A stretch of 64,000 nucleotides of DNA from Alphaproteobacteria bacterium (GTDB lineage: Bacteria; Pseudomonadota; Alphaproteobacteria; UBA828). Each line of letters opens with the position of its first letter. The first letter of the stretch is position 1. Below the pieces are notes generated by a model that saw only the letters and a list, made by a program, of their open reading frames with translations, was not told the DNA's origin and searched no databases. The DNA lies in NCBI GenBank assembly GCA_963422645.2, contig CAXXVO010000010.1, positions 1 to 64,000 on the forward strand. The letters run 5' to 3'. A program made the position numbers and the translations under genes. Positions 2,206 to 22,727 of this stretch are shown here, one piece after another.

Positions 2206-3528
2206 TCACCAATTCATGTGGGCCTGGACCGCCTCGTCGGAGACCCGGCCCGCGGCGACGTCGGCGAGAGCCTGGTCGATGATGGCGAGGCCCTCGGCGC
2301 ATTCCGCATCGCTCAAGTTCAGCGGCGGCGTGATCTCCAGCACGTTGGCTGCGAGCCCGACGTAGATGAAGCTCGCCCCGAGCTCGTAGGCGCGCAGGAT
2401 CACCTTGGCGGTGGTGGTGGCCTCGACCGGCGTCTTGCTTTCGCGGTCCTGTACCAGGTCGACGCCGATCGCGAGGCCGCGCCCCCGCACATCGCCGATC
2501 ATCGCGTGACGCTCGCCGAGCGCGCGCAAGCCGTCCGCCAGCTGCTTGCCCATGCACGCGGCGTGGGCCGGCAGGTCCTCGTCGAGAACGGTGCGCAGCA
2601 CGGCGAGGCCCGCGGCGGTGCAGACCGGGTTGCCGCCGGTGGTCTGAATCGCGAATGCCGGGCGGTGGTCCAGAATGTCCGCGGGCCCTATCACGGCGGA
2701 GAGCGGCAGCCCGCCGCCGATCCCCTTGCCCAACACCACCAGATCGGGGGTCAACCCCTCGTGACTGAAGGCGTGGAACAGCCCGCTGCGCCCGCAGCCG
2801 ACCTTGACCTCATCCAGCACGGTGAGAATACCGTGTTGCCGGCAACGCTCCTCCAGCGCCTTCAGGAAACCGGCGGGCGGCACGATGAGCCCGCCGTCGG
2901 ACATGACGGGCTCGATGAAGACGGCGGCGACCTGCTCCGGCGGACACGTGGTCTCGAACTGGTAGTCCAGCATGTCGAGCACCTCGTCCGCCGAGAAGCG
3001 CGGCCGGTAGGGATCGGGATAGGGCAGCAGCACCAGGCCCGGCCTCGGCAGGGTGTGGGTCATCGCGGTATGGCCCGAGATCGCCATGGAGCCCGCGACG
3101 CCGCCATGGTAGGAGCCGATGAACGAGATGAAGCGGGGCCGGCCGGTGGCGGCCTCCAGCACGCGCGCGGCGGCATCGTTCGCGTCCGAGCCGGAATGGC
3201 CGAACCAGACGCGCCGCTCGCCACTGCCGGGTGTGACCTGAAGCAACGCTTCGGCGAGCGCGGCGGCAGGCTCGTTCGGGTACATCAAGAGGCTCGCGCC
3301 CGCCATGTCGGTGAGCGCCTTGGTCACCGCCTCGGTCACCGCCGGGTGCGCGTAGCCGAGGCTCGCAGCGGTGGCGGAAGCCGAGAGATCGAGAATGCGC
3401 CGCCCGTCCTCGCTGGTGAGGTAGGAGCCCTTGCCGCCGCGGGCTGCCAGCGGATTGAAGCGCAGTTTCTGGATCTCCGCGATTGCGGCCGTGTCGCGCT
3501 GGCTCAGATCGTCGTTCGAGCGGGCCAT
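2206..3528 (-). CDS. Class III PLP aminotransferase (4-aminobutyrate/ornithine aminotransferase-like)
   Basis: 440 aa; SGSDAND, YHG, FIEPV, DEVKVGCGRSG and LGKGIGGG motifs. Confidence 0.9.
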   Translation of the reverse strand: MARSNDDLSQRDTAAIAEIQKLRFNPLAARGGKGSYLTSEDGRRILDLSASATAASLGYAHPAVTEAVTKALTDMAGASLLMYPNEPAAALAEALLQVTPGSGERRVWFGHSGSDANDAAARVLEAATGRPRFISFIGSYHGGVAGSMAISGHTAMTHTLPRPGLVLLPYPDPYRPRFSADEVLDMLDYQFETTCPPEQVAAVFIEPVMSDGGLIVPPAGFLKALEERCRQHGILTVLDEVKVGCGRSGLFHAFSHEGLTPDLVVLGKGIGGGLPLSAVIGPADILDHRPAFAIQTTGGNPVCTAAGLAVLRTVLDEDLPAHAACMGKQLADGLRALGERHAMIGDVRGRGLAIGVDLVQDRESKTPVEATTTAKVILRAYELGASFIYVGLAANVLEITPPLNLSDAECAEGLAIIDQALADVAAGRVSDEAVQAHMNW

Positions 3529-3709
3529 GGTTCGCGCTCCTTCATCGAAGTCTGCGCGCCAGCGTCATGCAAGCGCAGGCTGTGAGGAGGCGCTGGATGG
3601 TCGAGGCCACACCGGCGCTCTCTCTCCCAGCCGGCATTTTGCATCCCGGTGCGGGCCGCGTCATGCTTGGATGCCGTGGAACTCACACGATGAGCGCGAG
3701 GACAAGGCG

Positions 3710-5881
3710 ATGACGGGTGATTCGAGATACGACGTGCTGTTCGAGCCCGTTCGCATCGGGCCGAAGCAGGCTCCCAATCGCTTCTTCCAGGTTCCCCATT
3801 GCAACGGCGCGGGCTCCCACCGGCCAGGCGCCCAGGCCGCCTTTCGGGCCATGAAGGCCGAGGGCGGTTGGGGCGTCGTGTGCGTGGAATATTGCTCCAT
3901 CAACCCGGAAACCGACGACACGCCGCATACGAGTGTACGTCTGTGGGACGAGGGCGACGTCATCAATCTGCGGCACACGACGGAGAGCGTGCATCGCCAC
4001 GGCGCCCTGGCCGGAATTCAGCTGTGGTACGGGGGCGGTCACGCGCCAGTGCGCGAAACCCTCGCGATCCCGCGCGGCCCCAGCCAGATGCCCTCCGAGA
4101 CCGCTTACCAGAACTACTGCCATGAGTGCGACGAAGACGACATCCGCGAGCTTATCCAGATGTATGTCGACGCCGCCAAACGCTCCGAGGACGCAGGCTT
4201 CGACTATGTCGAGGTGATCGGCTCCGATTCCTCGCTCCCCACCCAGTTCCTCCAGCCGATGTACAACAAGCGCAGCGACCGCTGGGGCGGCTCATTCGAG
4301 AACCGCGCGCGCTTTTGGGTGGAAACCATGGCGGCGCTCAAGCGCGCCGTGGGCGACCGCGTCGCCGTCGGCACGCGCATCGCGATCGACAATTTGCTGG
4401 GGCCAGCGGGTCTGGAATTGGAGGAAGGTCTCAAATTCGTGGAGTTGGTCACGCGCGAGGGTGTGTGCGACCTGTGGGACATCAAGATTTCATACTTCAT
4501 GGAGTGGGGCAACGACGCCGGCCCCTCGCGCTTCTTCGAACCCGGTTATCAGACCTGGGCCACGAAGGCGGTCAAGGAGGTGGCGAATGTCCCTGTGGTC
4601 GGGGTGGGGCGGGTCACCAGCCCCGACGACATGGTGCGCATCATCCGCGCAGGCGAGGCGGACCTGATCGGCGCCGCGCGGCCGTCGATCGCCGATCCCT
4701 TTCTTCCCCGCAAGATCCGGGAGGGCAGGTCGGACGACATCCGGGAGTGCATCGGCTGCAACATCTGCGTCTCCCAGTTCAATCAGGAGGCCCCGCTCAT
4801 CTGCACCCAGAACGCGACGGCGATGGAGGAGTACCGGCGCGGCTGGCATCCCGAGCACTTCGACAAGGCAGCCGATCCCTGTTCGGTGCTCGTCGTGGGC
4901 GCCGGCCCCGCAGGGATGGAATGCGCGCGCGTGCTCGGCGAGCGTGGCTACGACGTTCACCTGCGCGAGCGCGAGGACGAGATCGGCGGGCACATCCGCC
5001 AGGTCATGCGCTACCCGGGCCTCGCGGAATGGGGCCGCATCATCAGCTACCGGCAGACTCAGATCGACAAGCTCAAGACCGTCGAGGTCCATACCGGCGT
5101 CGACGACATGACCGCCGGCAGCGTGCTCGCTTACGGCGCCGATAAGGTCGTGATCGCGGTCGGCGCCCAATGGGTCACAGATGGCCTCAACGCCGTCAGC
5201 TTCGGTCCGATCGATGGCGCCAGCGCCGAAACCCCGCAATTCTGCACACCCGAGCAGGTGATGAACGGAAAGGACATCGGCGATCGCGTGGTGATCCTGG
5301 ACGGCGACGGTTACTTCACCGGCGTCGCGATGGCGGAAATGATGGCGGAGAGAGGCAAGCAGGTCTCTGTCGTCACCCAGTTCAACGAAGTCGCCCCATT
5401 CTGTCAGAACACCCTCGAAGGACCGAACTTGCAGCGGCTTCTCTACGAGCAGGATGTCCAGTGCTACCCGCTTCACTGGGTCGAATCCCTATCCGTCAAC
5501 AACACGATCAAGGTCGAGATCGCGTACGCCTATCGCGACAGTCCCCGTATCGAGCTGCCGCCGCGAACGGGCCACGTGCCAAGGCGCCTCGGCACCGAAA
5601 CGACGACGCTGGAATGCGATACCGTGATCCTCTGTACGGCGCGTCAGTCGAGGACCGAGCTGTTTACATCGCTCAAGGCGCGTAAGGACGAGTGGTCTCT
5701 GAACGACGTGCAGGCGGTCTATCACGTGGGCGACTGCCACACCCCGAGATTCATCCAGTTATCCGTGTTCGAAGGGCACCGGCTAGGTCGCGAATTCGAG
5801 TCAGATAATCCGCAGTATCCGCTTCCCTTCATCAGTGAGAAGCACATCTGGGGAAACGAGACCTACCCGAAGAGGGGATAG
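3710..5881 (+). CDS. Trimethylamine/dimethylamine/histamine dehydrogenase-like flavoprotein (OYE barrel, 4Fe-4S, ADP domain)
   Basis: NRFFQVPHC (Cys for covalent FMN in TMADH), KAEGGWG, CIGCNIC..C cluster, GAGPAG; start taken at ATG 3710. Confidence 0.88.
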   Translation: MTGDSRYDVLFEPVRIGPKQAPNRFFQVPHCNGAGSHRPGAQAAFRAMKAEGGWGVVCVEYCSINPETDDTPHTSVRLWDEGDVINLRHTTESVHRHGALAGIQLWYGGGHAPVRETLAIPRGPSQMPSETAYQNYCHECDEDDIRELIQMYVDAAKRSEDAGFDYVEVIGSDSSLPTQFLQPMYNKRSDRWGGSFENRARFWVETMAALKRAVGDRVAVGTRIAIDNLLGPAGLELEEGLKFVELVTREGVCDLWDIKISYFMEWGNDAGPSRFFEPGYQTWATKAVKEVANVPVVGVGRVTSPDDMVRIIRAGEADLIGAARPSIADPFLPRKIREGRSDDIRECIGCNICVSQFNQEAPLICTQNATAMEEYRRGWHPEHFDKAADPCSVLVVGAGPAGMECARVLGERGYDVHLREREDEIGGHIRQVMRYPGLAEWGRIISYRQTQIDKLKTVEVHTGVDDMTAGSVLAYGADKVVIAVGAQWVTDGLNAVSFGPIDGASAETPQFCTPEQVMNGKDIGDRVVILDGDGYFTGVAMAEMMAERGKQVSVVTQFNEVAPFCQNTLEGPNLQRLLYEQDVQCYPLHWVESLSVNNTIKVEIAYAYRDSPRIELPPRTGHVPRRLGTETTTLECDTVILCTARQSRTELFTSLKARKDEWSLNDVQAVYHVGDCHTPRFIQLSVFEGHRLGREFESDNPQYPLPFISEKHIWGNETYPKRG

Positions 5882-6805: not shown

Positions 6806-7569
<764 letters not shown>

Positions 7570-7572
<3 letters not shown>

Positions 7573-7599
7573 AGCGCGTCCGACTTAGACGGACGCGCG
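7570..7599. repeat. Hairpin after the sigma stop codon (REP-like or terminator-like)
   Basis: CGCGTCCG-acttaga-CGGACGCG perfect 8-bp stem preceded by TAGAG. Confidence 0.4.
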
Positions 7600-7720: not shown

Positions 7721-8011
7721 TTGTTGTGCGTGATGGCGACCGATGCGGAGTGGTCGCGGATGCGCGGGAAGGCGCAGGAGGAAGGGACGTCGTGCTCGGA
7801 ATTCATCGTGCGGCGCTGCCTGGTTGAAGCGGAGCCCGCCGCGCCTGATCCCGCTCTGCCGGCGCCGGTGCTGCGCCACATCGCGCGCTCGGTGCTGGCG
7901 CTGGGGGATATGGAGCGGCTGCGGTCGATCGGGGAGGGCTCCGAGGGGGACTGGAACGCGGCGCTCGCGCGGGCCGATCGCTGGCTTGACGGAGAGACGG
8001 CTCTGGGGTGA
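7721..8011 (+). CDS. Small ribbon-helix-helix/MobC-like protein 1
   Basis: ATDAEWSRMRGKAQEEGTSCSEFIVRRCL fits an RHH pattern; start uncertain. Confidence 0.5.
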   Translation: MLCVMATDAEWSRMRGKAQEEGTSCSEFIVRRCLVEAEPAAPDPALPAPVLRHIARSVLALGDMERLRSIGEGSEGDWNAALARADRWLDGETALG

Positions 8012-8024
8012 TCGGGAGGGCGCG

Positions 8025-8354
8025 GTGAGACTCGCGAAGCAGCGCGGCATCCACTGCACGCCAGAGAAGTGGGAGCGGATCCGGCGGCGCGCCCGGAAGG
8101 CGAATTTGTTGATCTCGCGCTTCGGCGAGCTCTGCTGCCGGCGCGCGGCGGAAGCGTTGGGCGCACCGCCGTCGGTGCCGCCGGGCCATCCGCTGGCGTG
8201 GCCTGAGGACGACCAGCGGCGCCTGCTGGCGCACAGTCTTGCGGTGCAGCGCAGGACGCGTGTTTCGATCCAGGCGCCGGGGGGAGAGCGCGTCGACCTA
8301 CCGCTCGATGCGGTGATCCGCTTCCTGCTGCTGTGCGAGGAGGAGGGCAATTGA
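8025..8354 (+). CDS. Small ribbon-helix-helix/MobC-like protein 2
   Basis: GGAGG RBS, GTG start; CTPEKWERIRRRARKANLLISRF. Confidence 0.5.
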   Translation: MRLAKQRGIHCTPEKWERIRRRARKANLLISRFGELCCRRAAEALGAPPSVPPGHPLAWPEDDQRRLLAHSLAVQRRTRVSIQAPGGERVDLPLDAVIRFLLLCEEEGN

Positions 8355-8887
8355 GCAAGCCGAGAAAGAAGCCGCCCACGCGCGAGGAGTCGCGCGGGAG
8401 GACGTACACGATCTCGTGCACCGAAGAGCAGTGGGCGGCGATTCAGGACGGAGCGGAGCGGGCCGGCAAGAACGTCTCGACGTGGTACGTCGAGTGCGCG
8501 CTGACCGTGGATCCGTGGCCCAGGAAGCACCGCCGGCTGGTGCTGAACGAGAGGGAGCAGCGCCGCCACGCGCGGGCGGTGGCGGCGAGCGCCCGGAACC
8601 TCGGCGTGGACGAGGCGGGCGGGGCCGGCGATGTCGGGGCCGATCTCAGGGCGCTCATGGCCGCGCGACTGCGCGGGATGGACCGGCGCGGCCGGCGCGC
8701 GGACGCGCTGGCGTTGTTGCGCCGGGCGTTCGGCGACGAGGCGGCGCAAACCGTCGCCGCGGCGTTCATACCGGACGCGCCGGCGCCGGCACCCGCGGCG
8801 CCGGCGGAGAGCCCGGACAGTAGCGGGGCCGAGGCGCCGCCCAAGGCAGCGCCGCAGGGCGAGCTGTTCCCTACCGACGACGATTAG
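8351..8887 (+). CDS. Ribbon-helix-helix/MobC-like protein 3
   Basis: TTG start overlapping the previous stop, GGAGG RBS; TISCTEEQWAAIQDGAERAGKNVSTWYVECAL. Confidence 0.55.
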   Translation: MSKPRKKPPTREESRGRTYTISCTEEQWAAIQDGAERAGKNVSTWYVECALTVDPWPRKHRRLVLNEREQRRHARAVAASARNLGVDEAGGAGDVGADLRALMAARLRGMDRRGRRADALALLRRAFGDEAAQTVAAAFIPDAPAPAPAAPAESPDSSGAEAPPKAAPQGELFPTDDD

Positions 8888-9665: not shown

Positions 9666-9712
9666 CGGCCGGCCGCCGATGCGCGGACGTCGGCGGCCTC
9701 GGGTCGATCGCC

Positions 9713-9856
9713 GGCAGCCTGGTCGGCGGCGTTCTGCTCGGCATTACGCAAGTTCTCGCCGGGACCTATTTCGGCCCCTCCGCGCAACTCGTCGCCGGCT
9801 ACATGCTGATCCTGTTCGTGCTTGCGGTGCGGCCCCAGGGGCTCTTCTCGCGATGA
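9713..9856 (+). pseudogene. 3' fragment of a LivH-type ABC permease
   Basis: GSLVGGVLLGITQVLAGTYFGPSAQLVAGYMLILFVLAVRPQGLFSR*; stop overlaps the next ATG (ATGA). Confidence 0.75.
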
Positions 9857-12800
9857 TCGCGCGTGCCCTCAATTTCGCGCTGACCGGCTGGTCTGGCCGG
9901 GGCTTGCTCGCCCTGCTCTTCGCATTCGCCATTGCCCTCCCCTGGCTGGTCGGCGATCAGAGCTATGTGACCTATCTGGTGTTCACGTTCTTCGTGTTCG
10001 CCGTGTTCGGTCACGCCTGGAACCTGTTGGCCGGCTACTGCGGTCTGCTCTCCTTCGGCAACCAGGTCTACGTCGGCATCGGCGGCTTCGCCCTGGCGAT
10101 CATGTTCTATTACGGCGGCATCAACGTCTGGCTGGCGCTGCCGATCTCCGGAATCGTCACTGCGGCTTTCGCCTTTCTGCTTGCAACGCCGGTGCGGGAA
10201 AGCCTGGTGGGCATCGGAGTCTGGAAGCCCGTGGCGGTCGCCGGCGTGCTGTGGGCCGGCTACGAGGTCGCGCTTGGCTACTTTCCCGAGGCCGACATCT
10301 TCGGCGAAGTCTATATCCGCCGCGTCATCATCCTCCTGCTGATCTTTCTCGGCGCTCTCCCTCTGCTGCGCCTGCAAGGCGCCTATTTCGCGGTCGCAAG
10401 CTGGCTGATCGCGGCCGCGGTGGGCTCGATCTTCAACGAGTGGAAAGTGGTCGGCGCCGGCGGCGGCATGCAGATCAAGACCGATGCCACGCAGATCGAG
10501 ATGTACTACGCCGGCCTCGGGTTGCTCGTGTTCGCGACCGTGGTGATCGCACGGCTGCTCAAGAGCCGCTACGGACTCGCGCTGACCGCGGTGCGTGACG
10601 ATGAGGAAGCGGCGCGGACCGTCGGCATCGATATCCGCAAGGTGAAACTGATCGTCTTCGTGGTGGCGGGCGGGCTCAGCGGCATCGCGGCGGGCCTGTT
10701 CTACATCGACGCGGTGATCATCACGCCGCCGTCCGCATTCACGATCTTCTGGTCGGCCTATTTCGTCTTCATCGTCGTCGCCGGCGGCATGGGCACCCTG
10801 GCCGGCCCGATCATCGGCGCCGCAATCTTCGTCGTCGTCGACCGCGTGCTTTCCGGCTTCACCGAGTACCCGCTGCTGGTCCTCGGATTCGCCGCCGTGG
10901 TCATCATTTTCGTCATGCCCCGGGGCGTCATGGGCATCGTCAACGCGCTGCGCCATCTGGACGATTCGGCCACCGGCCGCAACGAGTTGCTCGAAGCGCT
11001 CGGCATCGGCGACCAGCTTCAGCGCACCCTCTTCTTCGCCAGACGGCGGGACACGAAGCCGGGGGTGGTGGCGGCCCTGCTGGTTCCGGGCAGCCCCCTG
11101 CCGCTCCTCGCCCGCGACAATCCGCCGTGGAGGGAGATTGCGGACGGTCTCGAAGGCGCAGCCGCTGCGCTACGCGAGGCGGAACCCGACGTCATCCTGA
11201 TCTACTCGACCCAATGGCTCGCCGTTCTCGACCAGCCCTGGCAGACCCGGCCGCGCGTCCGCGGCCTCCATGTCGACGAGAACTGGTACGAGTATGGCGA
11301 GATCGACTACGACATCGAGATCGACACCGAACTCGCTGAAGCGTGTATCGGCGGTTGCCGCTCCCTCGGGATCAAGGCTCGCGGCGTCGACTATGACGGC
11401 TTTCCGATCGACAGCGGCAGCATTGTCGCCAATCGCTTCCTCAACGCGGACGGTGCCCACATGGTCGTCTTGGCGGCGAACAACCTCTATCACGATTGGG
11501 AACTGACGCTGAAGCTCGGTGAGATGGCGGCGAACCAGGCGGTGCGCCTGGGCCGCCGGGTCGCCGTGGTCGGCGTCGGCGCTCTGTCCGGTTCCGCCTT
11601 CCGGCACGAGATCGATCCTGCCGACGATCGCATCGCGAGCACGAGCGAGGATGCGTGGAACCGGCGGATGCTCGACTTGATGGTCAAGGGAGATGCCTCG
11701 GCCATCAAGGCGCTGATTGCGGACTATACGCGCGAAGCCCGCGCGGACATGGGTTTCAAGCATTTCGCGTGGGTTCTCGGCGCCATGGGCGGCCGCTTCC
11801 ATAGCGCGACGCTTCACGCCTACGGCCCGATCTATGGAAACGGCGCGGCGGTGGTGGAGTTTCACACGAGCGAAGAGGCCGCGGCTCTTGCGGCCACGCG
11901 GCGAAGGCGCCGGCGTCGGCGGGCTCAGCCGGGGCGGGACGCACAAGTCCGTTCACAGGACGACGCCCGCGCCGGCAGGCGAGGGCTCTTCCGTTGGCTC
12001 CCGGCGGGTTCGCGGCGAGTGGCACCGACCGAACGCCCGTCGGCAGCGCCACCCTCGGCGCCCCCACCGCTTCCTGCGCGCCGGCCATCTGCAACGCGGA
12101 CCGGCCCCGCTCTCTATCGCTCGTTCCGCTCCCAGGCGGAAATCGACGAGCAATACGACGTCGAGAGCAGCGTGCCCGATTTCGGCCGCTACGTGGACTT
12201 CTTCCTCTCGAACAGCCAGCGCGTTCGCAAGAAGCTCGAGCCGCGGCTCGACGTGCCCTTCGGGCCGACGACAGCCGAGACCCTCGACATCTATCCGGCG
12301 GCGCGGCCCGATGCGCCGATCCACATGTTCATTCACGGTGGCTACTGGCACTCGCTGAGCAGCAAGGAGTTCAGCTTCGTGGCCGAGGGCCTGGTCGCGG
12401 CAGGCGTGACGGTGGTGATCAACAACTACGCGCTCTGCCCGGAGGTCACGATAACGGAGATCGTGCGGCAGAACCGTGCTGCGGTCGCATGGCTCTATCG
12501 CAACGCTGCGAGCTTCGGCGGCAATCGGAGCCGTGTCTACGTCTCGGGGCATTCGGCCGGCGGCCACCTGACGGCCATGTTGCTCGCGACCGATTGGGAG
12601 CGCGATTTCGGCCTGCCGCACGACCTCGTCAAGGGCGGCACGGCGATCAGCGGCCTCTTCGACCTGGAGCCGTTCGTTCATTCCTGGCTGCAAACCAAGC
12701 TGCGCCTGACCGCCGAGGAGATCGATCGGATGAGCCCGATCCGACACATCCCGGACCGTGCGTCCTCATTGATCGTCACGTTCGGCGGCGACGAATCCGC

Positions 12801-12969
12801 AGAGTTTCGCCGGCAGTCCGAGTCTTTTCTCACCGCCTGGAGCGAGAAGGGCCTCGACGGCCGCTATCTCGACCTGCCTGGCCGCAACCATTTTACGGTG
12901 CTGGAGGACTATATGGTGTCTGACAGCCCGCTCTGCCGTTCGATCCTGCGGCAAATGGGTGTTGCTTGA
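9853..12969 (+). CDS. Fusion: LivM-type ABC permease + 2-aminophenol 1,6-dioxygenase alpha-subunit-like (LigB fold) + arylformamidase-like alpha/beta hydrolase
   Basis: 1038-aa single ORF; WNLLAGYCGLLSFG and AVRDDEEAA (LivM); YSTQWLAVLDQ, HVDENWYE, DGFPID, DMGFKH (AmnA/CnbCa-like); HGGYW, GHSAGG, NHF (hydrolase). Confidence 0.85.
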   Translation: MIARALNFALTGWSGRGLLALLFAFAIALPWLVGDQSYVTYLVFTFFVFAVFGHAWNLLAGYCGLLSFGNQVYVGIGGFALAIMFYYGGINVWLALPISGIVTAAFAFLLATPVRESLVGIGVWKPVAVAGVLWAGYEVALGYFPEADIFGEVYIRRVIILLLIFLGALPLLRLQGAYFAVASWLIAAAVGSIFNEWKVVGAGGGMQIKTDATQIEMYYAGLGLLVFATVVIARLLKSRYGLALTAVRDDEEAARTVGIDIRKVKLIVFVVAGGLSGIAAGLFYIDAVIITPPSAFTIFWSAYFVFIVVAGGMGTLAGPIIGAAIFVVVDRVLSGFTEYPLLVLGFAAVVIIFVMPRGVMGIVNALRHLDDSATGRNELLEALGIGDQLQRTLFFARRRDTKPGVVAALLVPGSPLPLLARDNPPWREIADGLEGAAAALREAEPDVILIYSTQWLAVLDQPWQTRPRVRGLHVDENWYEYGEIDYDIEIDTELAEACIGGCRSLGIKARGVDYDGFPIDSGSIVANRFLNADGAHMVVLAANNLYHDWELTLKLGEMAANQAVRLGRRVAVVGVGALSGSAFRHEIDPADDRIASTSEDAWNRRMLDLMVKGDASAIKALIADYTREARADMGFKHFAWVLGAMGGRFHSATLHAYGPIYGNGAAVVEFHTSEEAAALAATRRRRRRRRAQPGRDAQVRSQDDARAGRRGLFRWLPAGSRRVAPTERPSAAPPSAPPPLPARRPSATRTGPALYRSFRSQAEIDEQYDVESSVPDFGRYVDFFLSNSQRVRKKLEPRLDVPFGPTTAETLDIYPAARPDAPIHMFIHGGYWHSLSSKEFSFVAEGLVAAGVTVVINNYALCPEVTITEIVRQNRAAVAWLYRNAASFGGNRSRVYVSGHSAGGHLTAMLLATDWERDFGLPHDLVKGGTAISGLFDLEPFVHSWLQTKLRLTAEEIDRMSPIRHIPDRASSLIVTFGGDESAEFRRQSESFLTAWSEKGLDGRYLDLPGRNHFTVLEDYMVSDSPLCRSILRQMGVA

Positions 12970-13272
12970 GAGCATGATGGTGTCGGCCCGGGGACACGAC
13001 CGCGGAGAGTGAACGCAGGCTGCGCTTCTCTCTTCTCCCCCTGATCCCCCTCGCGCCGGGAGGCGCAGGAGCCAAGCGAGCGGAGCGAGCGCCCGGCGAT
13101 TGAGGGAAATGAGTCTGTGGAGGAGAGGGTCGGGGGCGAGGAGGGGTCCGACCCGGACTCCTGCCGATTCTGGAGACCATGGTGCGGCGCAACGCGCGCA
13201 CCGGGCGTGTCAGGGTCGGGGTATGACGTGCAGAAACGAAGCGCCCTCGATCGATGTCACTGTCGCCGCCCG

Positions 13273-13314
13273 TCCCACTTATCCCACTTATCCCACTTGA
13301 ATCCCACTTATCCC
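13273..13314 (+). repeat. Short tandem repeat (TCCCACTTA) x ~4.5
   Basis: tcccactta tcccactta tcccacttgaa tcccactta tccc, directly left of the IS1595. Confidence 0.85.
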
Positions 13315-13318
13315 GGGA

Positions 13319-14369
13319 ACCGCTTATGCACATGGCTCCGGCTTGCTCAACATGTTGTAGGTAAGGGGTTTTGCATTGGTGGCGAGGCGGAAGAGCGAGC
13401 GGAAAGCAGCGTGGCGGGTTTTGCGGCGGTTGAAGCGAAAGACGAACTCATCGAGATAGGCCTGCAGATGCTTGCGGCGCAGCCCGTGGTAGACGCCTCG
13501 CGCCCATCCTTTGAGGTTGGAGAAGACTTGGTGGATCCACGGCAGGACGAGGTGAGCGGCGGTCTTCCCGACGACATGGACATTGTGGCGATCGGCGGGA
13601 ACCGCAGCGTAGCCGGACCAGCCGTCGGTTTTCGCGATGGCGTCGGGATCGGCGGCGGTTTCGATGAAGCGGCCGAGGTCGGCGGCGCCGTAGGAGGAGA
13701 TTTCGGCCAGCCGCAGGCGGCCCGGGATGGTTCCATCCCCCAGTTCGATGGCGCCGATGATCAGCATCTTGCCGTCGTGGCTGCGCCCCTGCCCGCCGCC
13801 GGGGGGATCGTTCCTGGTCCGGAATGGAAGGCTGGCCTCGTCGATTTCGACCAAGCCCGACAACGGGTTGCGCTCGGGGTCGACCATGCTGGCGCGCAGC
13901 TTGTGGACGAGCAGCCAGGCACTTCGGTACGAGCCGATGCCGAGTTGCTTCTGGAGTTGCAGGGCGGAAATGCCGTTGGAATGGGTCGCCATCAAGTAGG
14001 CGGCCCAGAACCAGACGGTGAGCGGCAGCTTGCTGGCGTGCAGGATCGTCCCGGCCGTCACCGAGGTCTGCCTGCGGCAGCCGGCGCACTCGAAGGTGTG
14101 TGCCTTTCTGCGCAGCGCCCATCCCTTTTCATGGCCGCACGCGGGACAGACGAAGCCGTCCGGCCAGCGCATTTCGATCAGCCAGGCGGCGCAGGCGTCA
14201 TCGTCCGGGAACATGCGCTGGAAGGCGAGGAGGCTGTCGGGGACCTGGTTCATGTGGTGGCTCCGCCGTCAGGAACGTATAGGGAACATTCTACCCGCTC
14301 CCCCGCCCTAACCTCAACCTCAACATCTGGTGGCCAACTCTCGTAACCGGAGCCACGTGCATAAGCGGT
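13319..14369 (-). mobile_element. IS1595-family element
   Basis: TIRs ACCGCTTATGCACaTGGCTCCGG / CCGGAGCCAcGTGCATAAGCGGT; 8-bp palindromic TSD TCCCGGGA (13311-13318, 14370-14377). Confidence 0.92.
13324..14253 (-). CDS. IS1595-family transposase
   Basis: CPAC..CAGC zinc finger, VEIDE, KTDGW, YLDEFVFRFNRR. Confidence 0.93.
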   Translation of the reverse strand: MNQVPDSLLAFQRMFPDDDACAAWLIEMRWPDGFVCPACGHEKGWALRRKAHTFECAGCRRQTSVTAGTILHASKLPLTVWFWAAYLMATHSNGISALQLQKQLGIGSYRSAWLLVHKLRASMVDPERNPLSGLVEIDEASLPFRTRNDPPGGGQGRSHDGKMLIIGAIELGDGTIPGRLRLAEISSYGAADLGRFIETAADPDAIAKTDGWSGYAAVPADRHNVHVVGKTAAHLVLPWIHQVFSNLKGWARGVYHGLRRKHLQAYLDEFVFRFNRRKTRHAAFRSLFRLATNAKPLTYNMLSKPEPCA

Positions 14370-14433
14370 TCCCGGGAATCCCGCCAAAAATTAACTCCCA
14401 CGTCTCGCGGGATGGGCACCGGAGCCGCAGGGA

Positions 14434-15504
14434 TCAGTCGATCAGCAACTCGCTGCTCGCCACGGTCCAGCCGATGACGGCCTCGGCCCCGTCGGCGAGA
14501 TCGGGCTGATCGGGTCGGTTGGGCACTTCGGCAACGATCTCCTGCCCCTCCAGCTGCATCCGGTAGCGGATGATCGCGCCCTGATAACTGCGATCGAGCA
14601 CGGTGGCGGTGACCTTGGTGCCGTCCACGGCCTCGGCGGCGGCGCCGATCAGCACGCGCTCCGGCCGGACCACGAAGCCGACCTCCTGGCCGGTCTCGAT
14701 CCCGTCGCGCCGCGGTGCGGCGAACTCGACCCGGCCCACGGCCACGCGACATTCGTCCCCGCTCACCGCCGCGACGCGGGCTTCGAGGATGTTGGACTCG
14801 CCGATGAAGTCGGTGACGAAGCGGTCCGCCGGATGCTCGTAAATCGTATCGGGCGCGCCAATCTGGACAACCTTCGCGCGGTTCATCACCGCGATCCGGT
14901 CCGACATGGTGAGCGCCTCGCCCTGATCGTGAGTCACGTAGACGGTGGTGATGCCGAGGGAGTGCTGCAGCCCCTTGATCCAGTACTTCATTTCCTCCCT
15001 GAGCTTCTTGTCGAGCGCGCTCAAGGGCTCGTCGAGAAGCAGGATCTTGGGCTCGGTGATAAGCACGCGGGCGAGCGCCACGCGCTGCTGCTCCCCGCCG
15101 GAAAGCTCGCGTTGGTAGCGCCGCTCGTAGCCGTCGAGATTGACCTGTTCCAGCGCCTTGCCGACGCGGCTGCGAATCTCCCGCTTCGGCACCTTCCGCA
15201 TCTTCAGGCCGAAGGCGATGTTGTCGAACGCCGTCATGTGCGGAAAGATCGCGTAGTTCTGGAAGACGATGCCGATGCCCCGCTTCTCCGGCGGAAGCAG
15301 GGTCATGTCCTCGCCGCCGATGAAGACGCGGCCCTGGTTCGGGCGGACGAAGCCCGCGATCATGCGGAGCGTCGTGGTCTTGCCGCAGCCGGAGGGTCCG
15401 AGGAGGGAGAAGAACTCCCCCTCCTCGACCCGGAGCGAGACGTCGTCGACCGCGAGGGTCTCGCCGTAGCGCTTGGTCAGGCTCGAAAGCTCGACGTCGG
15501 ACAC
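14434..15504 (-). CDS. ABC ATP-binding protein (PotA-like)
   Basis: GPSGCGKT, LSGGEQQR, LLDEP, TOBE-like C-terminus. Confidence 0.93.
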   Translation of the reverse strand: MSDVELSSLTKRYGETLAVDDVSLRVEEGEFFSLLGPSGCGKTTTLRMIAGFVRPNQGRVFIGGEDMTLLPPEKRGIGIVFQNYAIFPHMTAFDNIAFGLKMRKVPKREIRSRVGKALEQVNLDGYERRYQRELSGGEQQRVALARVLITEPKILLLDEPLSALDKKLREEMKYWIKGLQHSLGITTVYVTHDQGEALTMSDRIAVMNRAKVVQIGAPDTIYEHPADRFVTDFIGESNILEARVAAVSGDECRVAVGRVEFAAPRRDGIETGQEVGFVVRPERVLIGAAAEAVDGTKVTATVLDRSYQGAIIRYRMQLEGQEIVAEVPNRPDQPDLADGAEAVIGWTVASSELLID

Positions 15505-15543
15505 GCGCGACCCCTCTCAGTCATCCGGCCCGGCAACGATGGA

Positions 15544-16665
15544 TCAGCCGCCGAAGATCTCGTTGGTGGTCTCGACGATGTCGTCCTCGTTGTCGAGATA
15601 CCAATTCCAATCCGGGATCCAGAGCCCTTCCATGGCGCCGGCCGTGTTGACCACGCCCTTGCTTGCAAGGCTTTCCGCCACCGGCGCCGTGCCGTTGGTC
15701 GGCCGCAGGTAGAACGTGCCGCCGGCCTTCTCCTGGTAGCCGGGGTCGAGCGCCTCGTTCATCAGCGCAAACGCGAGCTTCTTCTGTATCGGATCGGAAT
15801 AGCGGCTGATGGTCTTGGTCTGGGTCAGGATCGGTTTGGAGCCCCAGATGACGGGGGCGACGGAGATGCCCTTGTCCATCTGCAGGTAGACCTCGCCTTC
15901 CCACTGCACGCCGAGGTGCACCTCGCCGCGCTCCACCAGGGTCTGCATGTTGCCGGTGAAGTCGCTGATCTTCATCGGCTTGGCGCGCTCCATGGCGTCG
16001 AAGCCGGCGTCCAGGTCCTCCGGCCCCTCGCCCCAGGCGGCGCTGGCGGCGATGAAGAACACCATCTGCAACGTGTTGGACGTGATGTAGGTGGCGCGAT
16101 TACCGGCGAAGCGGTCCTCCCAGAAGGACTTGAAGTCGGCGGGCGCGGGATCGACCAGGTCGGTCCGGTACACGTAGGCGTACTGGCCGAAGGCCCAGGT
16201 CACGCCGATGCCGTTGCCGAAGGCGAAGTCCCAGCAATCCGCCGCGTGCGGAACGTTCGCCTTGATGTCCTCGATCGGCAGGAAGTAATCGCCCGCCCGG
16301 GCGGTCTTCATCATCTCGGGCAGGTTCCAGTTGCACATGTGGAAGGCCGGGTCCTGCGGCCCGCTGGCGACGTATTTCGGGAACCAGGGCCACGAGGAAT
16401 CGTAGGCGATGGTGCAGTTGTAGGTCTTCTCGAAGTTCTCGATCACCGCGCCGCGGACGAACTCCTCCCAGAAGCCGCCCCACTCACCGAGGATGAACGT
16501 GGCGCCGCCGGCATCGAAGGGCTCACCGTCCCAGTGGACGTCCTGCGACCAGGCGTGGTTGATGTTGAAGAGGCCGAATTGGGTCGAGGCCGCGGCTGCG
16601 CCGCCTGCCGCGAGCCCCTTGAGGACGGTGCGCCGCGAGGGCTTGGAAGTACGTTTGACGGTCAT
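15544..16665 (-). CDS. ABC solute-binding protein (PotD/F-like) with Tat signal
   Basis: SRRTVLK twin-arginine motif; WGGFW; position in the operon. Confidence 0.85.
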   Translation of the reverse strand: MTVKRTSKPSRRTVLKGLAAGGAAAASTQFGLFNINHAWSQDVHWDGEPFDAGGATFILGEWGGFWEEFVRGAVIENFEKTYNCTIAYDSSWPWFPKYVASGPQDPAFHMCNWNLPEMMKTARAGDYFLPIEDIKANVPHAADCWDFAFGNGIGVTWAFGQYAYVYRTDLVDPAPADFKSFWEDRFAGNRATYITSNTLQMVFFIAASAAWGEGPEDLDAGFDAMERAKPMKISDFTGNMQTLVERGEVHLGVQWEGEVYLQMDKGISVAPVIWGSKPILTQTKTISRYSDPIQKKLAFALMNEALDPGYQEKAGGTFYLRPTNGTAPVAESLASKGVVNTAGAMEGLWIPDWNWYLDNEDDIVETTNEIFGG

Positions 16666-16687
16666 CGTTCAGTCTCCCTTTGTCCGG

Positions 16688-17575
16688 TTACGAGAACTTG
16701 ATTCCGGCGAAGCGCCGGATGTTGATGAGTCGCGAGGTGAGCAGCATCGAGATCACGACCAGCGCGATCGCGAAGATGCCCGCCGCCGCCGCCGTCGGCT
16801 CGAAGGTGTATCTGAGCGAAATATAGAGGGCGATGGGCAGCGGCGTGTAGTTCGGCGTGCTGAGAAAGAGCGAGACGTCGAACTGCCCGAAGGACACGAT
16901 GAAGGCGAAGATCGCGCCGGCAGCGACGCCGGGCCCGATGATCGGCAGCGTCACTCGGCGGAACGCCGTCCAGGGGCTGGCGCCGAGGCTGCGCGCGGCC
17001 TCCTCCAGCGCGATATCGAAGTTGAAGAGCGCCGCCGACACGGTGCCGATCACGTAAGGCGCCGTCACCAGCACGTGGCCGATGATGAGCCCGGGCAGTG
17101 TGCGAGAGAGCCCGATGCCGCTCGAGACATAGAAGACGTAGAGCGCGAGCCCCAGCACGATCCCCGGCAGAATCAGCGGCGAGAGGAAGTAGGCCCTGAG
17201 CAGGTTGCGGCCGGGGAAGGTCATGCGCGTGAGAAAGATCGCCGCCATGGTACCGAGCGTGGTCGAGATCACCATGACCACCACGGCGAGCCACAGGCTG
17301 AAGACGTAGGCGTCGAGGAATTCGCTCGCCTCGAAGAATGCGAAGATCCAACGGAGCGAGAGCCCCTCCGGCGGCCAGGTCAGGTGATCGCCGGAGTTGA
17401 GCCCGGCCAGCACTACGATCACGACGGGAAGCAGGAGGACGACAAAGGCGAGCCACGCGCCGATCTGGAGCGGCAGCGCGACCGCCGGCTCCTCGCGCGG
17501 CCCCTTCCGCCGGCCGAAGGGATTCCAGCCGCCGCCGCGCGGCGCGGGGCCTGTGTCCGTCACCATCTCCGCCAT
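16688..17575 (-). CDS. ABC permease (PotC-like)
   Basis: LEEAARSLGA EAA loop; hydrophobic helices. Confidence 0.9.
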   Translation of the reverse strand: MAEMVTDTGPAPRGGGWNPFGRRKGPREEPAVALPLQIGAWLAFVVLLLPVVIVVLAGLNSGDHLTWPPEGLSLRWIFAFFEASEFLDAYVFSLWLAVVVMVISTTLGTMAAIFLTRMTFPGRNLLRAYFLSPLILPGIVLGLALYVFYVSSGIGLSRTLPGLIIGHVLVTAPYVIGTVSAALFNFDIALEEAARSLGASPWTAFRRVTLPIIGPGVAAGAIFAFIVSFGQFDVSLFLSTPNYTPLPIALYISLRYTFEPTAAAAGIFAIALVVISMLLTSRLINIRRFAGIKFS

Positions 17576-17576
17576 C

Positions 17577-18491
17577 TCAGGCCCGCCCGCCCGCGGTGCG
17601 CGCCGCGAAGCGCTGATAGACGTAGACCGCGATCATGCTGGTGACGAAGAGCACGACCGCGATGGTCGCGCCGAACTGCCACTTACCCATCTCGGCGATC
17701 TGCTGATAGATGTGGAGCGGCATCACGATCACCTTCCAGCCGCCCATCAGCGCCGGCACGACGTAAGACGAGATCGAGATCGCGAACACCAGCAGCGTGC
17801 CGGCGAGGATGCCCGGCATGCTGAGCGGGAAGGTGATGCGCCAGAAGGTGGTCCAGCGGTTCGCGCCCAGGCTTCGCGCCGCCTCCTCCAACGAGGGGTG
17901 GATGCTCCTGATGATGCCGATCAGCGAGAGCACCATGAAGGGCAGAGTGAACTGGACGAGCCCGACCACGGCGCCGAAGAAGTTGTACATCAGCGGCAGC
18001 GGCTCGCGGATGACGCCTATGTCCTTGAGGACGCCGTTGATGATCCCGTTGTCGCCCATCAGAACCATCAGGCCGAAAAGGCGGATCACCATGTCGAGCT
18101 GCATCGCGCTCAGCACGAGGATCATATAGAAGGTGTTGCGCCCGGGATGCCTGGTCTTGGCGACGAAGTAGGCGAGCGGGTAGCCCAGCGCCAACGTAAC
18201 GACCGAGACGATCGCCGCCAGCCCGATCGAGCGTATCGCCGCCTCGTAGTAAAGCGAGCGGTTGAAGAAGCGGATGTAGTTCTTGAGCGTGAAGTCCCAC
18301 TGGATATCGACCACGCCCGCGACCGACTTGTCGAAGGAGATCAGGAACAACGAGACGGTCGGGACGACGAAGAATATCAGGAAGAAGACGAAAGCCGGCA
18401 GCACCAGCCAGAAGAGCCGGGAGTCGGCGAGAATGCGCCTGAGGTCGGGCAGCGGGGACGTGCGCTCCGCTTGGGCCTCGGCGAGTGCCAT
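17577..18491 (-). CDS. ABC permease (PotB-like)
   Basis: LGYPLAY, LEEAARSLGA. Confidence 0.9.
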   Translation of the reverse strand: MALAEAQAERTSPLPDLRRILADSRLFWLVLPAFVFFLIFFVVPTVSLFLISFDKSVAGVVDIQWDFTLKNYIRFFNRSLYYEAAIRSIGLAAIVSVVTLALGYPLAYFVAKTRHPGRNTFYMILVLSAMQLDMVIRLFGLMVLMGDNGIINGVLKDIGVIREPLPLMYNFFGAVVGLVQFTLPFMVLSLIGIIRSIHPSLEEAARSLGANRWTTFWRITFPLSMPGILAGTLLVFAISISSYVVPALMGGWKVIVMPLHIYQQIAEMGKWQFGATIAVVLFVTSMIAVYVYQRFAARTAGGRA

Positions 18492-18801
18492 CGTTCCCTT
18501 CGTTCCCTAAGTGCTCAAGACGCCCATGTTGGCCCCAATGCCTCAAGCGAACCAGCCCGGCGACGTCACATCCTGAACGGGTCAGGTCGTGACGGACGCC
18601 AAGTCTCGCCGACCGTCCATGACCATAGCATCCCTATTCGGTCTGCCGACATCAACGCCGATTGGCATTACGCTATCGGGCACGGGAAACGCGACGCTCG
18701 AATCTAGGCAGCGTGCCGGCCGCGAGTCAGTCGGCGAAACGGATAGGTTCTCGACTCGTTCGGATAGGTAATCGTGCTCGAGAGAGACCTGCTGAAAGGA
18801 T

Positions 18802-18878
18802 TGGCGCGCCCGGCAGGACTCGAACCTGCGACCCCAAGCTTAGAAGGCTCGTGCTCTATCCGGCTGAGCTACGGGCGC
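18802..18878 (-). tRNA. tRNA-Arg(UCU)
   Basis: 77-nt cloverleaf GCGCCCGTAGCTCAG...CT-TCT-AA...GGTTCGAGTCC...GCCA with encoded CCA. Confidence 0.96.
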
Positions 18879-18956
18879 CGACCCCGTACCTATCACGACC
18901 GGCCCCAAATGTGATCGACCATCAGCGTATCCGCCCGGCTCGCGCTCGCCATGCGC

Positions 18957-20138
18957 TCAAGCTGCGGCCGCGCGCTCCGCGAGCCAGCGCTCGATGCGGG
19001 CGATGGATTCCTCGATCTCCTCGGTGCTCGCGGCATAGGAGAGGCGGAGGTAGCCCTCGCCGTAGGCGCCGAAGCTGGTGCCGGCGATGGTGGCGACGCC
19101 GGCCTCCTCCAGCAGCCCGTCCTGCAGCGTGCGCGTATCGAGCCCGGTGCCGGTGATGTTGGGCATGGCGTAGAACGCACCGGCGGAATCGACGCAGGTG
19201 ACACCCTCGACCCGGTTGAGCGCGGCGACGATAAGCTTCCTCCGCTCGTCGAAGGTTTGGCGCATGATCTCGACCGAATCCTGCGGCCCGGTGAGTGCCG
19301 CCAACGCCGCGTGCTGGGTCGGCGCGTTGACGCAGGAGTTGCAGTTGATCGCAAGCCGCGTCGCCTGCTCCGCAAGCGATGCGGGCCAGACCCCGTAGCC
19401 GATGCGCCAGCCGGTCATCGCGTAGGTCTTGCTCCAGCCGTCCAACACGATCACGCGGTCCCGAAGCGCCGGATAGTCCAGCATCGTGACGTGCTCGCGG
19501 CCCTCGTAGAGCAGCCGGCTGTAGATCTCGTCGCTCATGATCGCGACATGCGGATGGGCCTCGAGCCCTTCGGCAAGCCGATCGAAGGTCTCGCGGGGCA
19601 CCACGCCCCCGGTCGGGTTGGCCGGGCTGTTGAGCATGACCAGCCGGGTGCGCGGGGTGATCTTGGCCAGCACCTCGTCCGCATCGAAGGAGAAGCCGGT
19701 CTCCTCGTAGAGCGGGATCGGCACTGGGATCGCGCCGGAAAACTTGATCGCGGATTCGTAGATGGGGAAGCCGGGATTGGGATAGAGGATTTCGGCCCCC
19801 TCTTCGCCGAACATCAGCGCGGCGAAGAACATCGTGACCTTGCCGCCCGGCACCACCACGACATTGTCGGGATCGACCTCGCAGCGACGGTAAGTGACGA
19901 TATCCGCCGCCACCGCCTCGCGCAGCGCCGGGATGCCGTTGGCCGGGGTATAACCGTGGTGGCCGTCCGCAAGCGCCTTGCGGCCGGCCTCGACGATGTG
20001 CTCAGGCGTGCGGAAATCGGGCTGCCCGATTCCGAGATTGATGATGCTGCGCCCGGCCGCCTGCAAGGCGCCTGCGCGGGCCAATACATCGAAGGCGGTC
20101 TCGGTCCCGAGCCGCCCCATGCGCTCGGCGGTCTGCAC
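18957..20138 (-). CDS. Class I/II PLP aminotransferase (aspartate aminotransferase-like)
   Basis: NSPANPTG, SDEIY, SKTYAMTGWRIG; GTG start with GGGAGG RBS. Confidence 0.92.
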   Translation of the reverse strand: MQTAERMGRLGTETAFDVLARAGALQAAGRSIINLGIGQPDFRTPEHIVEAGRKALADGHHGYTPANGIPALREAVAADIVTYRRCEVDPDNVVVVPGGKVTMFFAALMFGEEGAEILYPNPGFPIYESAIKFSGAIPVPIPLYEETGFSFDADEVLAKITPRTRLVMLNSPANPTGGVVPRETFDRLAEGLEAHPHVAIMSDEIYSRLLYEGREHVTMLDYPALRDRVIVLDGWSKTYAMTGWRIGYGVWPASLAEQATRLAINCNSCVNAPTQHAALAALTGPQDSVEIMRQTFDERRKLIVAALNRVEGVTCVDSAGAFYAMPNITGTGLDTRTLQDGLLEEAGVATIAGTSFGAYGEGYLRLSYAASTEEIEESIARIERWLAERAAAA

Positions 20139-20263
20139 GTGCGCCTCCCTGTCCCAACTCAAGGCCGCGCATGATGCCATCAAAGGAGGCGGCGCGGAAC
20201 CGGACCTGCGCTATCATGCGCCGCCGACAGAGTTTAAGGTCCGTGCCGGCCTGGCACGCTTAG

Positions 20264-20611
<348 letters not shown>

Positions 20612-20683
20612 GCGCGCCAGCGCGTCGATGCCGGATGCGGCAGGCGCGGAGAGGACAGGCCGAGCGGGCGATGGAGCAGTGCA

Positions 20684-22093: not shown

Positions 22094-22165
22094 ACGGGGG
22101 GTGCGGACGACGCAGCGCGCCGGACGCGCCCGGCCCGCCTGAACGACCGCAACTGCGCCGCGGCC

Positions 22166-22357
22166 GTGCCAATTCAGATCGCCGTCGGCCTCGTGCTCGG
22201 GGCCGTCATCCTCTATCCAGCGTTGCGCATCTGCGCGCGCGCGGGCCTGCGCTGGCCGATCGCGCTCGTGGTGTTCGTGCCCCTGATCGGGCCGCTGATC
22301 CTGCTCGCGCTGCTTGCCTTCATGATCTGGCCCAACGACCGCTACGGAAAGCGCTGA
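22166..22357 (+). CDS. Small membrane protein
   Basis: 63 aa, two hydrophobic helices; similar pattern to the next ORF (RI..RAG..W...AF..WP). Confidence 0.55.
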   Translation: MPIQIAVGLVLGAVILYPALRICARAGLRWPIALVVFVPLIGPLILLALLAFMIWPNDRYGKR

Positions 22358-22360
22358 ACC

Positions 22361-22727
22361 GTGGTCGGCGTCCTGCAGTACCTCGCGGTCGTTGTCATCG
22401 CGATGTGGATGTTCTGGCGCATCTTCCACAAGGCCGGGCGCAACCCCTGGTGGTCCCACGTCATGGTATTCGCGTTCGTCGGCCTCTTCACGCCGCTTCC
22501 CATCGGCTTGGGCCTCCTGTTCGGCGTGCCGGTGCTCATGATCTGGGTCTTTGCATTCTTGCCCTGGCCCTCGATCGACAACCCGCGCCCGCTCCCTGAT
22601 ACGCCGGGCTACGATCCGCCGGAGCCTGAGCGATTCACAGGGCGTTTCAGACGAACCACACGGCCGACCGAGACGACGGACCGAAGGAGCCGCGGGATTA
22701 CTCGCCGGCCGGCAAGGAGACGAGACG

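Follow-up and report, generated by a model that had tools for sequence, protein, structure and literature searches.

A LivM-type permease fused to an aminophenol dioxygenase alpha-subunit-like domain and a serine hydrolase: a conserved component of intact aminophenol operons that appears stranded in one alphaproteobacterial genome

The window analyzed here is a stretch of 64,000 nucleotides (positions 1 to 64,000, forward strand, of contig CAXXVO010000010.1, assembly GCA_963422645.2) from an alphaproteobacterium of the UBA828 lineage (genome G000). At 9853..12969 on the plus strand it encodes one three-domain frame of 1038 amino acids (aa) plus stop, in which a LivM-type ATP-binding cassette (ABC) permease is followed by a domain of the type of the alpha subunit of 2-aminophenol 1,6-dioxygenase (AmnA/CnbCa; hereafter alpha') and by a serine hydrolase (Table 1). 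The reading frame is stop-free from 9679 until the stop codon at 12967-12969, and the start codon (ATG, 9853) shares the letters ATGA with the stop codon of a livH remnant that lies in a different frame. Alpha' is an internal domain of this open reading frame (ORF), not a free polypeptide of ~270 aa. GTG codons occur in frame at aa 405, 406, and 723, and there is no in-frame ATG at the start of domain 2 or domain 3. The first-pass annotation of this DNA had described a single uninterrupted ORF of 1038 aa with no in-frame Met at the start of the second or third domain, and both descriptions hold. Its Arg/Pro-rich linker of ~90 aa is correct in composition (linker 2: R 25%, A 21%, P 15%) but too long, the distance between the flanking homology boundaries, by which linker lengths are defined here, being ~75 aa.

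Table 1. Coordinates of the fusion gene, its domains, and adjoining features in the window.
Feature	Position	Strand	Basis or remark
Whole fusion ORF	9853..12969	+	Open frame, Pfam, genus homologues, database relatives
LivM-type (HAAT family) ABC permease domain, aa 1-366	9853..10950	+	BPD_transp_2
Linker 1, aa 367-403, 37 aa	10951..11061	+	Genus-conserved; RRRD at end
Alpha', AmnA/CnbCa-type alpha-subunit domain, aa 404-672	11062..11868	+	PDB match 3vsg_A
Linker 2, aa 673-747, ~75 aa	11869..12093	+	Arg/Ala/Pro-rich; sequence and length variable
Serine hydrolase, BD-FAE / Abhydrolase_3 (hormone-sensitive-lipase) group, aa 748-1038	12094..12966	+	HGGYW, GHSAG, NHF
livH remnant	9701..9856	+	Last 51 codons and stop; translation GSIAGSLVGG...GLFSR (stop)
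Insertion absent from G005	12977..14369	-	Gap in alignment; directly after fusion gene
IS1595-family transposase ORF	13324-14253	-	DDE_Tnp_IS1595

The 1038-aa protein matches the Pfam families BPD_transp_2 (1.3e-24), LigB (1.7e-12), BD-FAE (1.8e-16), and Abhydrolase_3 (1.2e-13), and these matches, those to solved structures, and the motifs agree with the earlier assignment of a LivM permease, an AmnA-type alpha subunit, and an HGGYW/GHSAG hydrolase to one frame. The permease domain scores 87.3 bits against BPD_transp_2 (gathering cut-off 26.8) and falls below the NCBIfam cut-offs for LivM (PRK11301, 101.8 bits; 366 needed) and UrtC (95.9 bits; 296 needed); a sequence search of the LivM part against solved structures gave 0 matches. 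A crude hydropathy scan of this part yields overlapping segments and no clean helix count. The C-terminus of the permease is probably cytoplasmic, given four hydrophobic stretches after a conserved ALTAVRDDEEA loop, the basic RRRD after the last of them, and the cytoplasmic enzyme domains downstream.

Alpha' aligns with CnbCa (3vsg_A) over residues 3-270 of 271 (E 1e-95; 58% identity within the genus) and with AmnA (8ihg_B, 4.9e-88), and far more weakly with beta subunits (1e-23 to 1e-19). Aligned to AmnB, it has VPGSPL for beta APHPPH, STQW for SPHW, and RADMG for FAEVK, and carries Gly and Gln at two beta-subunit His positions; G413 and Q454 are kept at 90% or more across 23 fusions. The Fe(II) ligands of CnbCb are, we presume, His13, His62, and Glu251, and we take the two lost histidines to be among them; the alpha subunit is non-catalytic, as stated in the first-pass annotation, and alpha' lacks both histidines. 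The hydrolase motifs (HGGYW at aa 828, GHSAG at aa 899, and NHF at aa 1012) are all conserved in eight genus sequences. Its best solved matches are 9n8r, an uncharacterized 'Lipase 1' (8.8e-46), and 2pbl (2.7e-21), and in the ESM Atlas it falls in generic alpha/beta-hydrolase clusters only.

The fusion gene is real and conserved. A set of 41 genomes (G000 and 40 relatives) was searched, and the full-length stop-free frame is present, with 81-97% identity, in 7/20 further genomes of the genus, i.e., in 8/41 genomes with G000 included; none was found in the 20 genomes of other genera. The eight genus proteins align end to end, and their length differences are whole codons, all located in linker 2. 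Pairwise ratios of non-synonymous to synonymous substitution (dN/dS) are 0.00-0.13 for LivM, 0.14-0.18 for alpha', and 0.12-0.20 for the hydrolase; the linkers give 0.06-0.21 (linker 1) and 0.31-0.71 (linker 2), and so these ratios point to purifying selection on all three domains and constraint on linker 1, with linker 2 being loose yet apparently translated. In fusions that are only 57-68% identical, linker 2 is wholly different in sequence and length, and the frame is still kept. Contigs from four public runs (two studies) contain 0 indels within 9853-12969; linker 1 is spanned by single pieces from X4 (10825-11213) and X5 (10741-11142) and linker 2 by a single piece from X4 (11776-12518), each with 0 differences.

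These results bear on the alternative that the long ORF is an artefact, either of three adjacent genes read through or of assembly errors in the linkers. The genome has a G+C content of 66-67%, at which long spurious frames are frequent, the Arg/Pro/Ala-rich linkers resemble typical out-of-frame translation, and three database relatives (P0021, P0023, and P0027) lose the hydrolase frame. An artefact is nevertheless hardly credible and is rejected here: in eight genomes of the genus the frame is retained and indels are confined to whole codons, it persists in divergent homologues with unrelated linkers, both linkers have dN/dS below 1, the domain starts lack ATG, and four independent runs agree. 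The first-pass annotation would have given up the fusion had its linkers proved interrupted or its homologues always separate; the linkers are free of stops and frameshifts, and 67/73 loci have fused homologues, and therefore that objection falls away.

The same architecture recurs well outside the genus. When 5.8 billion proteins were searched by means of a word index, 324 matches were obtained; among the 120 matches listed, at least 51 carry all three Pfam families (~1010-1043 aa) and at least 66 are LivM+LigB proteins, mostly of 665-702 aa, and an exhaustive search of 50%-identity representatives agrees with this picture. The database names are automatic only, e.g., 'alpha/beta hydrolase fold domain-containing protein', 'hypothetical', or 'ABC-type branched-chain amino acid transport system permease/aromatic ring-opening dioxygenase'. 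The metagenomic proteins P0021, P0023, and P0027 (90-93% identity) keep LivM and alpha', and P0021 diverges exactly where linker 2 ends. In GTDB species genomes we found 80 loci, 73 of which have a LivM orthologue of >45% identity; the LivM frame continues stop-free into the AmnA-type domain in 67 of these 73 (54 two-domain, 13 three-domain), counts that come from related genomes rather than independent events. The remaining six comprise four loci cut by a contig end, one with LivM alone (Paraburkholderia), and one with a split gene (Neopusillimonas aromaticivorans). In the latter (L090; the cultured strain CC-YST667), the LivM and AmnA-like parts at 9902-11905 are out of frame (ORFs 9902-10315 and 10805-11905); either decay of this copy or an error in sequencing could account for the split. 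Alphaproteobacterial carriers include Rhodospirillales and Rhodospirillaceae metagenome-assembled genomes (MAGs), Azospirillaceae, Mesorhizobium, Phaeobacter, Devosia, and Paracoccaceae, and betaproteobacterial carriers include many Burkholderiales (Xenophilus, Methylibium, Variovorax, and Rubrivivax). Across 401 evenly sampled genomes of the class, a match spanning the junction occurs in five, G000 included. The family is broad but rare.

Intact operons place the fusion within an aminophenol pathway. The sister genome G005 (97% identical) has the fusion as the last of a nine-gene run that encodes, in order, an aldehyde dehydrogenase, a RidA-type protein, AmnB, AmnA, a Peripla_BP_6 binding protein, two ABC ATPases, LivH, and the fusion. 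The G005 AmnB matches CnbCb (3vsg_B, 2.3e-166) and AmnB (8ihg_A, 7.1e-166), and the dehydrogenase passes the equivalog model TIGR03216 for 2-hydroxymuconic semialdehyde dehydrogenase (860 bits; cut-off 693). On these matches, the operon encodes a predicted near-canonical aminophenol dioxygenase and the next two predicted pathway enzymes. The gene order that recurs among these 80 loci runs [MarR] - RidA - amnB - amnA - binding protein - [hydrolase] - livG - livF - livH - livM::amnA' - [aldehyde dehydrogenase] - [RidA, FAA-hydrolase family, acetaldehyde dehydrogenase]. Judged by gene content and order, the operon of the relatives is the classical amnRJBACD cluster plus a transporter module that separates amnA from amnC. 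Of the fused loci that have upstream DNA, 53/53 carry amnB as well as a free amnA. In the locus of Xenophilus sp. L33 (L044), amnC is followed by another RidA-type gene and by a cytochrome P450 gene (13391-15121), an arrangement that may hint at the type of substrate used in that lineage.

A hydrolase gene accompanies the module in either of two forms. In 35/38 complete two-domain operons (all except L034, L068, and L076) and in 0/12 three-domain operons, the binding-protein and livG genes flank a free hydrolase gene whose product is ~50% identical to domain 3. These counts indicate that the hydrolase is a constant part of the module and, in this lineage, was transferred to the tail of the permease gene; it is fused only in this Rhodospirillales-type lineage. 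Free hydrolases start at an M-x-LYRxF motif that aligns with aa 748 of the fusion, and they have no signal peptide, from which a cytoplasmic location would follow for both forms. In a genome of another genus (G021), amnB, amnA, and a 74%-identical free hydrolase gene lie side by side with no transporter gene in the 8 kb covered. A Burkholderiaceae MAG (L048, 3117-7475) has the binding-protein and hydrolase pair in tandem duplicate.

Where 2.5 kb or more of DNA before amnB was covered, 46/47 fused loci (all but L022) have a flotillin gene (SPFH/Band 7 and Flot) that lies divergently upstream. It is found in 0/7 loci with a distant unfused LivM, and is absent from the window. Examples are L059:167-2257 (-), L044:406-2166 (-), L090:1243-3051 (-), and L013:19258-20000 (+). 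The open-access library searched contained no paper combining aminophenol, flotillin, and dioxygenase.

In G000 itself, the operon upstream of the fusion has been lost. At the nucleotide level, G005 aligns only with 9688-12976 (96%) and 14370-22717 (95%). The break at ~9688 lies inside livH, 55 codons before its stop, and the DNA to its left is unrelated to G005, has 70-78% G+C, and shows no clear Pfam domains. The window contains no amnB, amnA, amnC, or RidA-type genes, and none of amnB, amnA, the cognate aldehyde dehydrogenase gene, or the genes for the binding protein, ATPases, and LivH was found elsewhere in the assembly (99.58% complete, 8.48% contamination). The amnB gene that the first-pass annotation proposed to locate in this genome was sought without success: the best match to an AmnB query is the alpha' of the fusion itself, and the only other LigB-family gene (on contig C19) is not AmnB-like. 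The livH remnant is 49% identical to the C-terminus of a LivH encoded on contig C15. The same genes, amnB included, are also missing from G003 (two contigs, 100% complete), through an independent deletion of ~8 kb (L017, G003:C2, about 11583-11760) whose ends lie within the flotillin gene and at the last ~40 codons of livH, a point in the livH 3' end that differs from the break in G000. As assembled, the copy in G000 thus appears to be an intact orphan, a stranded relic unable to perform the function of the operon. Because amnB, livH, livG, livF, and the binding-protein gene are gone, the assembly of proteins proposed below could not form here. Directly downstream, the insertion that is absent from G005 carries a transposase ORF (Table 1); the ~1.05-kb core of this IS1595 element has >20 copies in the genome at ~95% identity, which marks the genome as rich in insertion sequences (IS).

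To the left of the livH break, a stretch of ~1.05 kb at 7727-8780 is repeated on contig C8 (94%), and a sigma-70-type gene segment at 6806-7574 is duplicated on C18 (99%) and C9 (80%); 8333-8887 has a weak NikA-like Pfam match. Near the contig start are an IS66-family transposase fragment with DUF6444 and zf-IS66 only (852-1976, -), a class-III aminotransferase gene (2206-3528, -), and a gene for an OYE-type flavin mononucleotide (FMN) oxidoreductase fused to a pyridine-nucleotide-disulphide oxidoreductase (3431-5881, +).

We propose, with a probability of about 0.6, that the fusion is an importer permease whose alpha' and hydrolase domains tether aminophenol cleavage to the transporter in intact operons, the copy in G000 being stranded. 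The importer would take up an acylated, formylated, or esterified aminophenol, and the hydrolase would release the aminophenol on the inner side of the membrane. Alpha' would hold catalytic AmnB at the transporter exit, and this AmnB would dimerize with a second AmnB bearing free AmnA, such that ring cleavage follows without delay and the toxic aminophenol does not persist; the cleavage product would then be converted by AmnC and RidA-type deaminases. The solved ARO enzyme is described as two alpha/beta heterodimers joined via their beta subunits (PMC10470539). Since a LivH/LivM pair offers a single alpha', a docked tetramer would need one free alpha subunit, which would explain why amnA is always kept. 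As stated in the same paper, 2-aminophenol is toxic above 100 uM, the intermediates are unstable, and the natural substrate is unknown (PMC10470539); toxicity and instability together would provide a rationale for confinement. In G000, a rearrangement with its break in livH would have deleted the promoter-proximal genes. The membrane-anchored metabolon suggested in the first-pass annotation consequently fits the intact operons of relatives, which encode AmnB, AmnA, AmnC, RidA, and a full importer, but not this genome, where the partner genes are gone. A more elaborate version, in which the whole is an undescribed transport metabolon with a dead alpha' docking AmnB/AmnA, a hydrolase that unmasks the aminophenol, a flotillin microdomain, and a natural aminophenol conjugate rather than a nitroaromatic pollutant as substrate, is offered tentatively, and we would not be surprised to see it fail in one part or another.

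Several results weigh against this proposal. In the same 48 loci, alpha' has a mean pairwise identity of 47% with four invariant columns, compared with 61% and 48 columns for free alpha and 79% and 100 columns for beta; alpha' is therefore, by this measure of the alignments, apparently the least constrained and fastest-evolving of the three LigB-type proteins. In one alphaproteobacterial clade alpha' falls to 26-35% identity while beta is conserved, and the enzyme can be made without alpha', given that a free alpha is retained throughout. In a quick tree of the three, which carries long-branch warnings and neither dates nor roots the duplication, beta forms one group, free alpha nearly does, and alpha' lies outside free alpha. 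The binding protein of the intact operon finds, among solved structures, at best unliganded Leu/Ile/Val-binding homologues (E 1.1e-05). As for the hydrolase, the arylformamidase-like character assigned to it by the first-pass annotation holds for its motifs but not for close homology: the match to Drosophila kynurenine formamidase 4e11 is weak (1.7e-16), and no curated NCBIfam cut-off is reached (HaHSL_fam, 163 bits; 320 needed). Hydrolase paralogues in this genome (C13 and C7; 42-45% identical) have no kynurenine-pathway neighbours; an Aminotran_5 gene beside one of them was considered as a kynureninase and rejected as BhcA-like, and the other neighbours are unrelated. The stranding in G000 also meets difficulties. 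G003 keeps an intact fusion ORF of 1041 aa after its deletion, and the G000 branch (14 non-synonymous and 31 synonymous changes) resembles that of G005 (11 and 24) when changes are polarized with six outgroups and 44 ambiguous sites are dropped. With the ORF intact and no relaxation of constraint in G000, either the loss is recent or the gene is still of some use. Furthermore, 9688 is a branch point in the graphs of the public contigs, with pieces ending or starting there in all four runs. One X2 piece crosses it from the left by 29 bases, under the 31-letter rule for a bridge, and one X5 piece runs 1388 letters to its left with unlike sequence, which suggests that strains with a different, possibly intact, upstream context coexist in some samples.

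The rapid divergence of alpha' leaves room for a different role, as a cytoplasmic ligand-sensing or gating domain that does not dock AmnB and instead throttles import (trans-inhibition) when a toxic intermediate accumulates. Such a role would accord with an alpha' that evolves much faster than free alpha and beta, with the retention of free alpha in 53/53 loci, and with the loss of the metal-ligand His positions, as expected for a module that only binds. We nevertheless regard it as rather unlikely, since alpha' of the genus is 58% identical, along its entire length, to a solved alpha subunit and evolves at a dN/dS of about 0.15, and nothing examined points to a ligand pocket in alpha subunits; moreover, the regulatory domains known from ABC importers belong to the ATPase subunits rather than to the permease.

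A separate question is whether the copies in G000 and G003 still work alone, as membrane-anchored esterases or amidases or as permeases that borrow a paralogous LivH and ATPases. The intact ORF would fit this, as would the LivM part, which differs between G000 and G005 by 0 non-synonymous and 33 synonymous changes, and the absence of a non-synonymous excess on the G000 branch. Two independent deletions with different break points in livH both spared the gene, and a paralogous liv operon is present on C15, its LivH being 43% identical to the lost one. Pairing of heterologous subunits at 43% identity would, however, have to be assumed; the upstream DNA is unrelated and repeat-rich; a promoter scan of it gave 0 sites where 0.4 were expected, which is a weak test in DNA of 70% G+C; and a recent loss accounts equally well for an intact frame. 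Residual function of this kind is accordingly improbable in our judgement, and we retain the reading of a stranded copy.

Nearly all that is known of the 2-aminophenol pathway comes from bacteria that degrade nitrobenzene and chlorobenzene. A pathway placed behind a dedicated importer and hydrolase points to imported aminophenol conjugates as possible natural substrates, the natural substrates being a question that has been raised for the actinobacterial ARO microcompartment (PMC10470539). New here are the ABC importer module within an amn cluster, the permease-alpha' fusion beside a free alpha, an obligatory hydrolase in free or fused form, and the flotillin gene nearby; the superfamily of each domain and the surrounding amn pathway were already known. 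Among the titles and abstract beginnings listed in searches of the open-access literature, subscription journals being outside their scope, there is no description of a permease-AmnA fusion, and to this extent the earlier statement that no described example was known is upheld, although the sequences themselves are already public under generic, automatic names. The fusion of an enzyme subunit to an ABC permease is a genetically simple case with the free paralogue as a built-in control, and the cultured carriers Mesorhizobium sp. ANAO-SY3R2, Phaeobacter sp. 11ANDIMAR09, and Xenophilus sp. L33 make the model testable. The conserved flotillin neighbour could provide a rare functional handle on bacterial flotillins. 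Because the gene in the window is a stranded remnant in an IS-rich genome, the value of the window itself is lower, and the main value lies in the conserved family and its context.

Among characterized systems, alpha' is closest to the alpha subunits AmnA and CnbCa (PDB 3VSG, 8IHG, 7TXY), with which it shares full-length homology and the absence of two beta-subunit histidines, and the relatives' gene clusters likewise contain amnB and amnC. Unlike these subunits, alpha' is the middle domain of a membrane protein and a second, faster-evolving copy (~59% identical to the free amnA product), and this genome has no beta subunit. The operon of the relatives resembles amnRJBACD(FEHG) of Paraburkholderia xenovorans LB400, as given in PMC3790839, in the order MarR, RidA/YjgF, amnB, amnA, amnC, and second RidA and, in some relatives, in its genes for an FAA-hydrolase-family protein and acetaldehyde dehydrogenase. 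It differs in the five or six genes inserted between amnA and amnC and in the flotillin gene divergently upstream; the LB400 cluster as listed there includes no transporter gene (PMC3790839).

The permease domain resembles LivM/BraE-type HAAT permeases in its BPD_transp_2 domain and in the presence, in relatives, of livH, two ATPase genes, and a Peripla_BP_6 gene before it, but it bears a C-terminal extension of ~670 aa with enzyme-derived domains, and the window holds only 51 codons of livH without adjoining ATPase or binding-protein genes. The hydrolase shares HGGYW and GHSAG with kynurenine formamidase (4E11) and hormone-sensitive-lipase-type esterases (9N8R, 2PBL); unlike them, it is fused to a permease here, and it is a free gene in most relatives. 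The ARO microcompartment of Actinobacteria relies on encapsulation in a protein shell and belongs to a different phylum, the comparison of homology extending to AmnAB only; it nevertheless offers a parallel in that it confines AmnAB together with unstable, toxic intermediates of a pathway whose initial substrate is unknown (PMC10470539).

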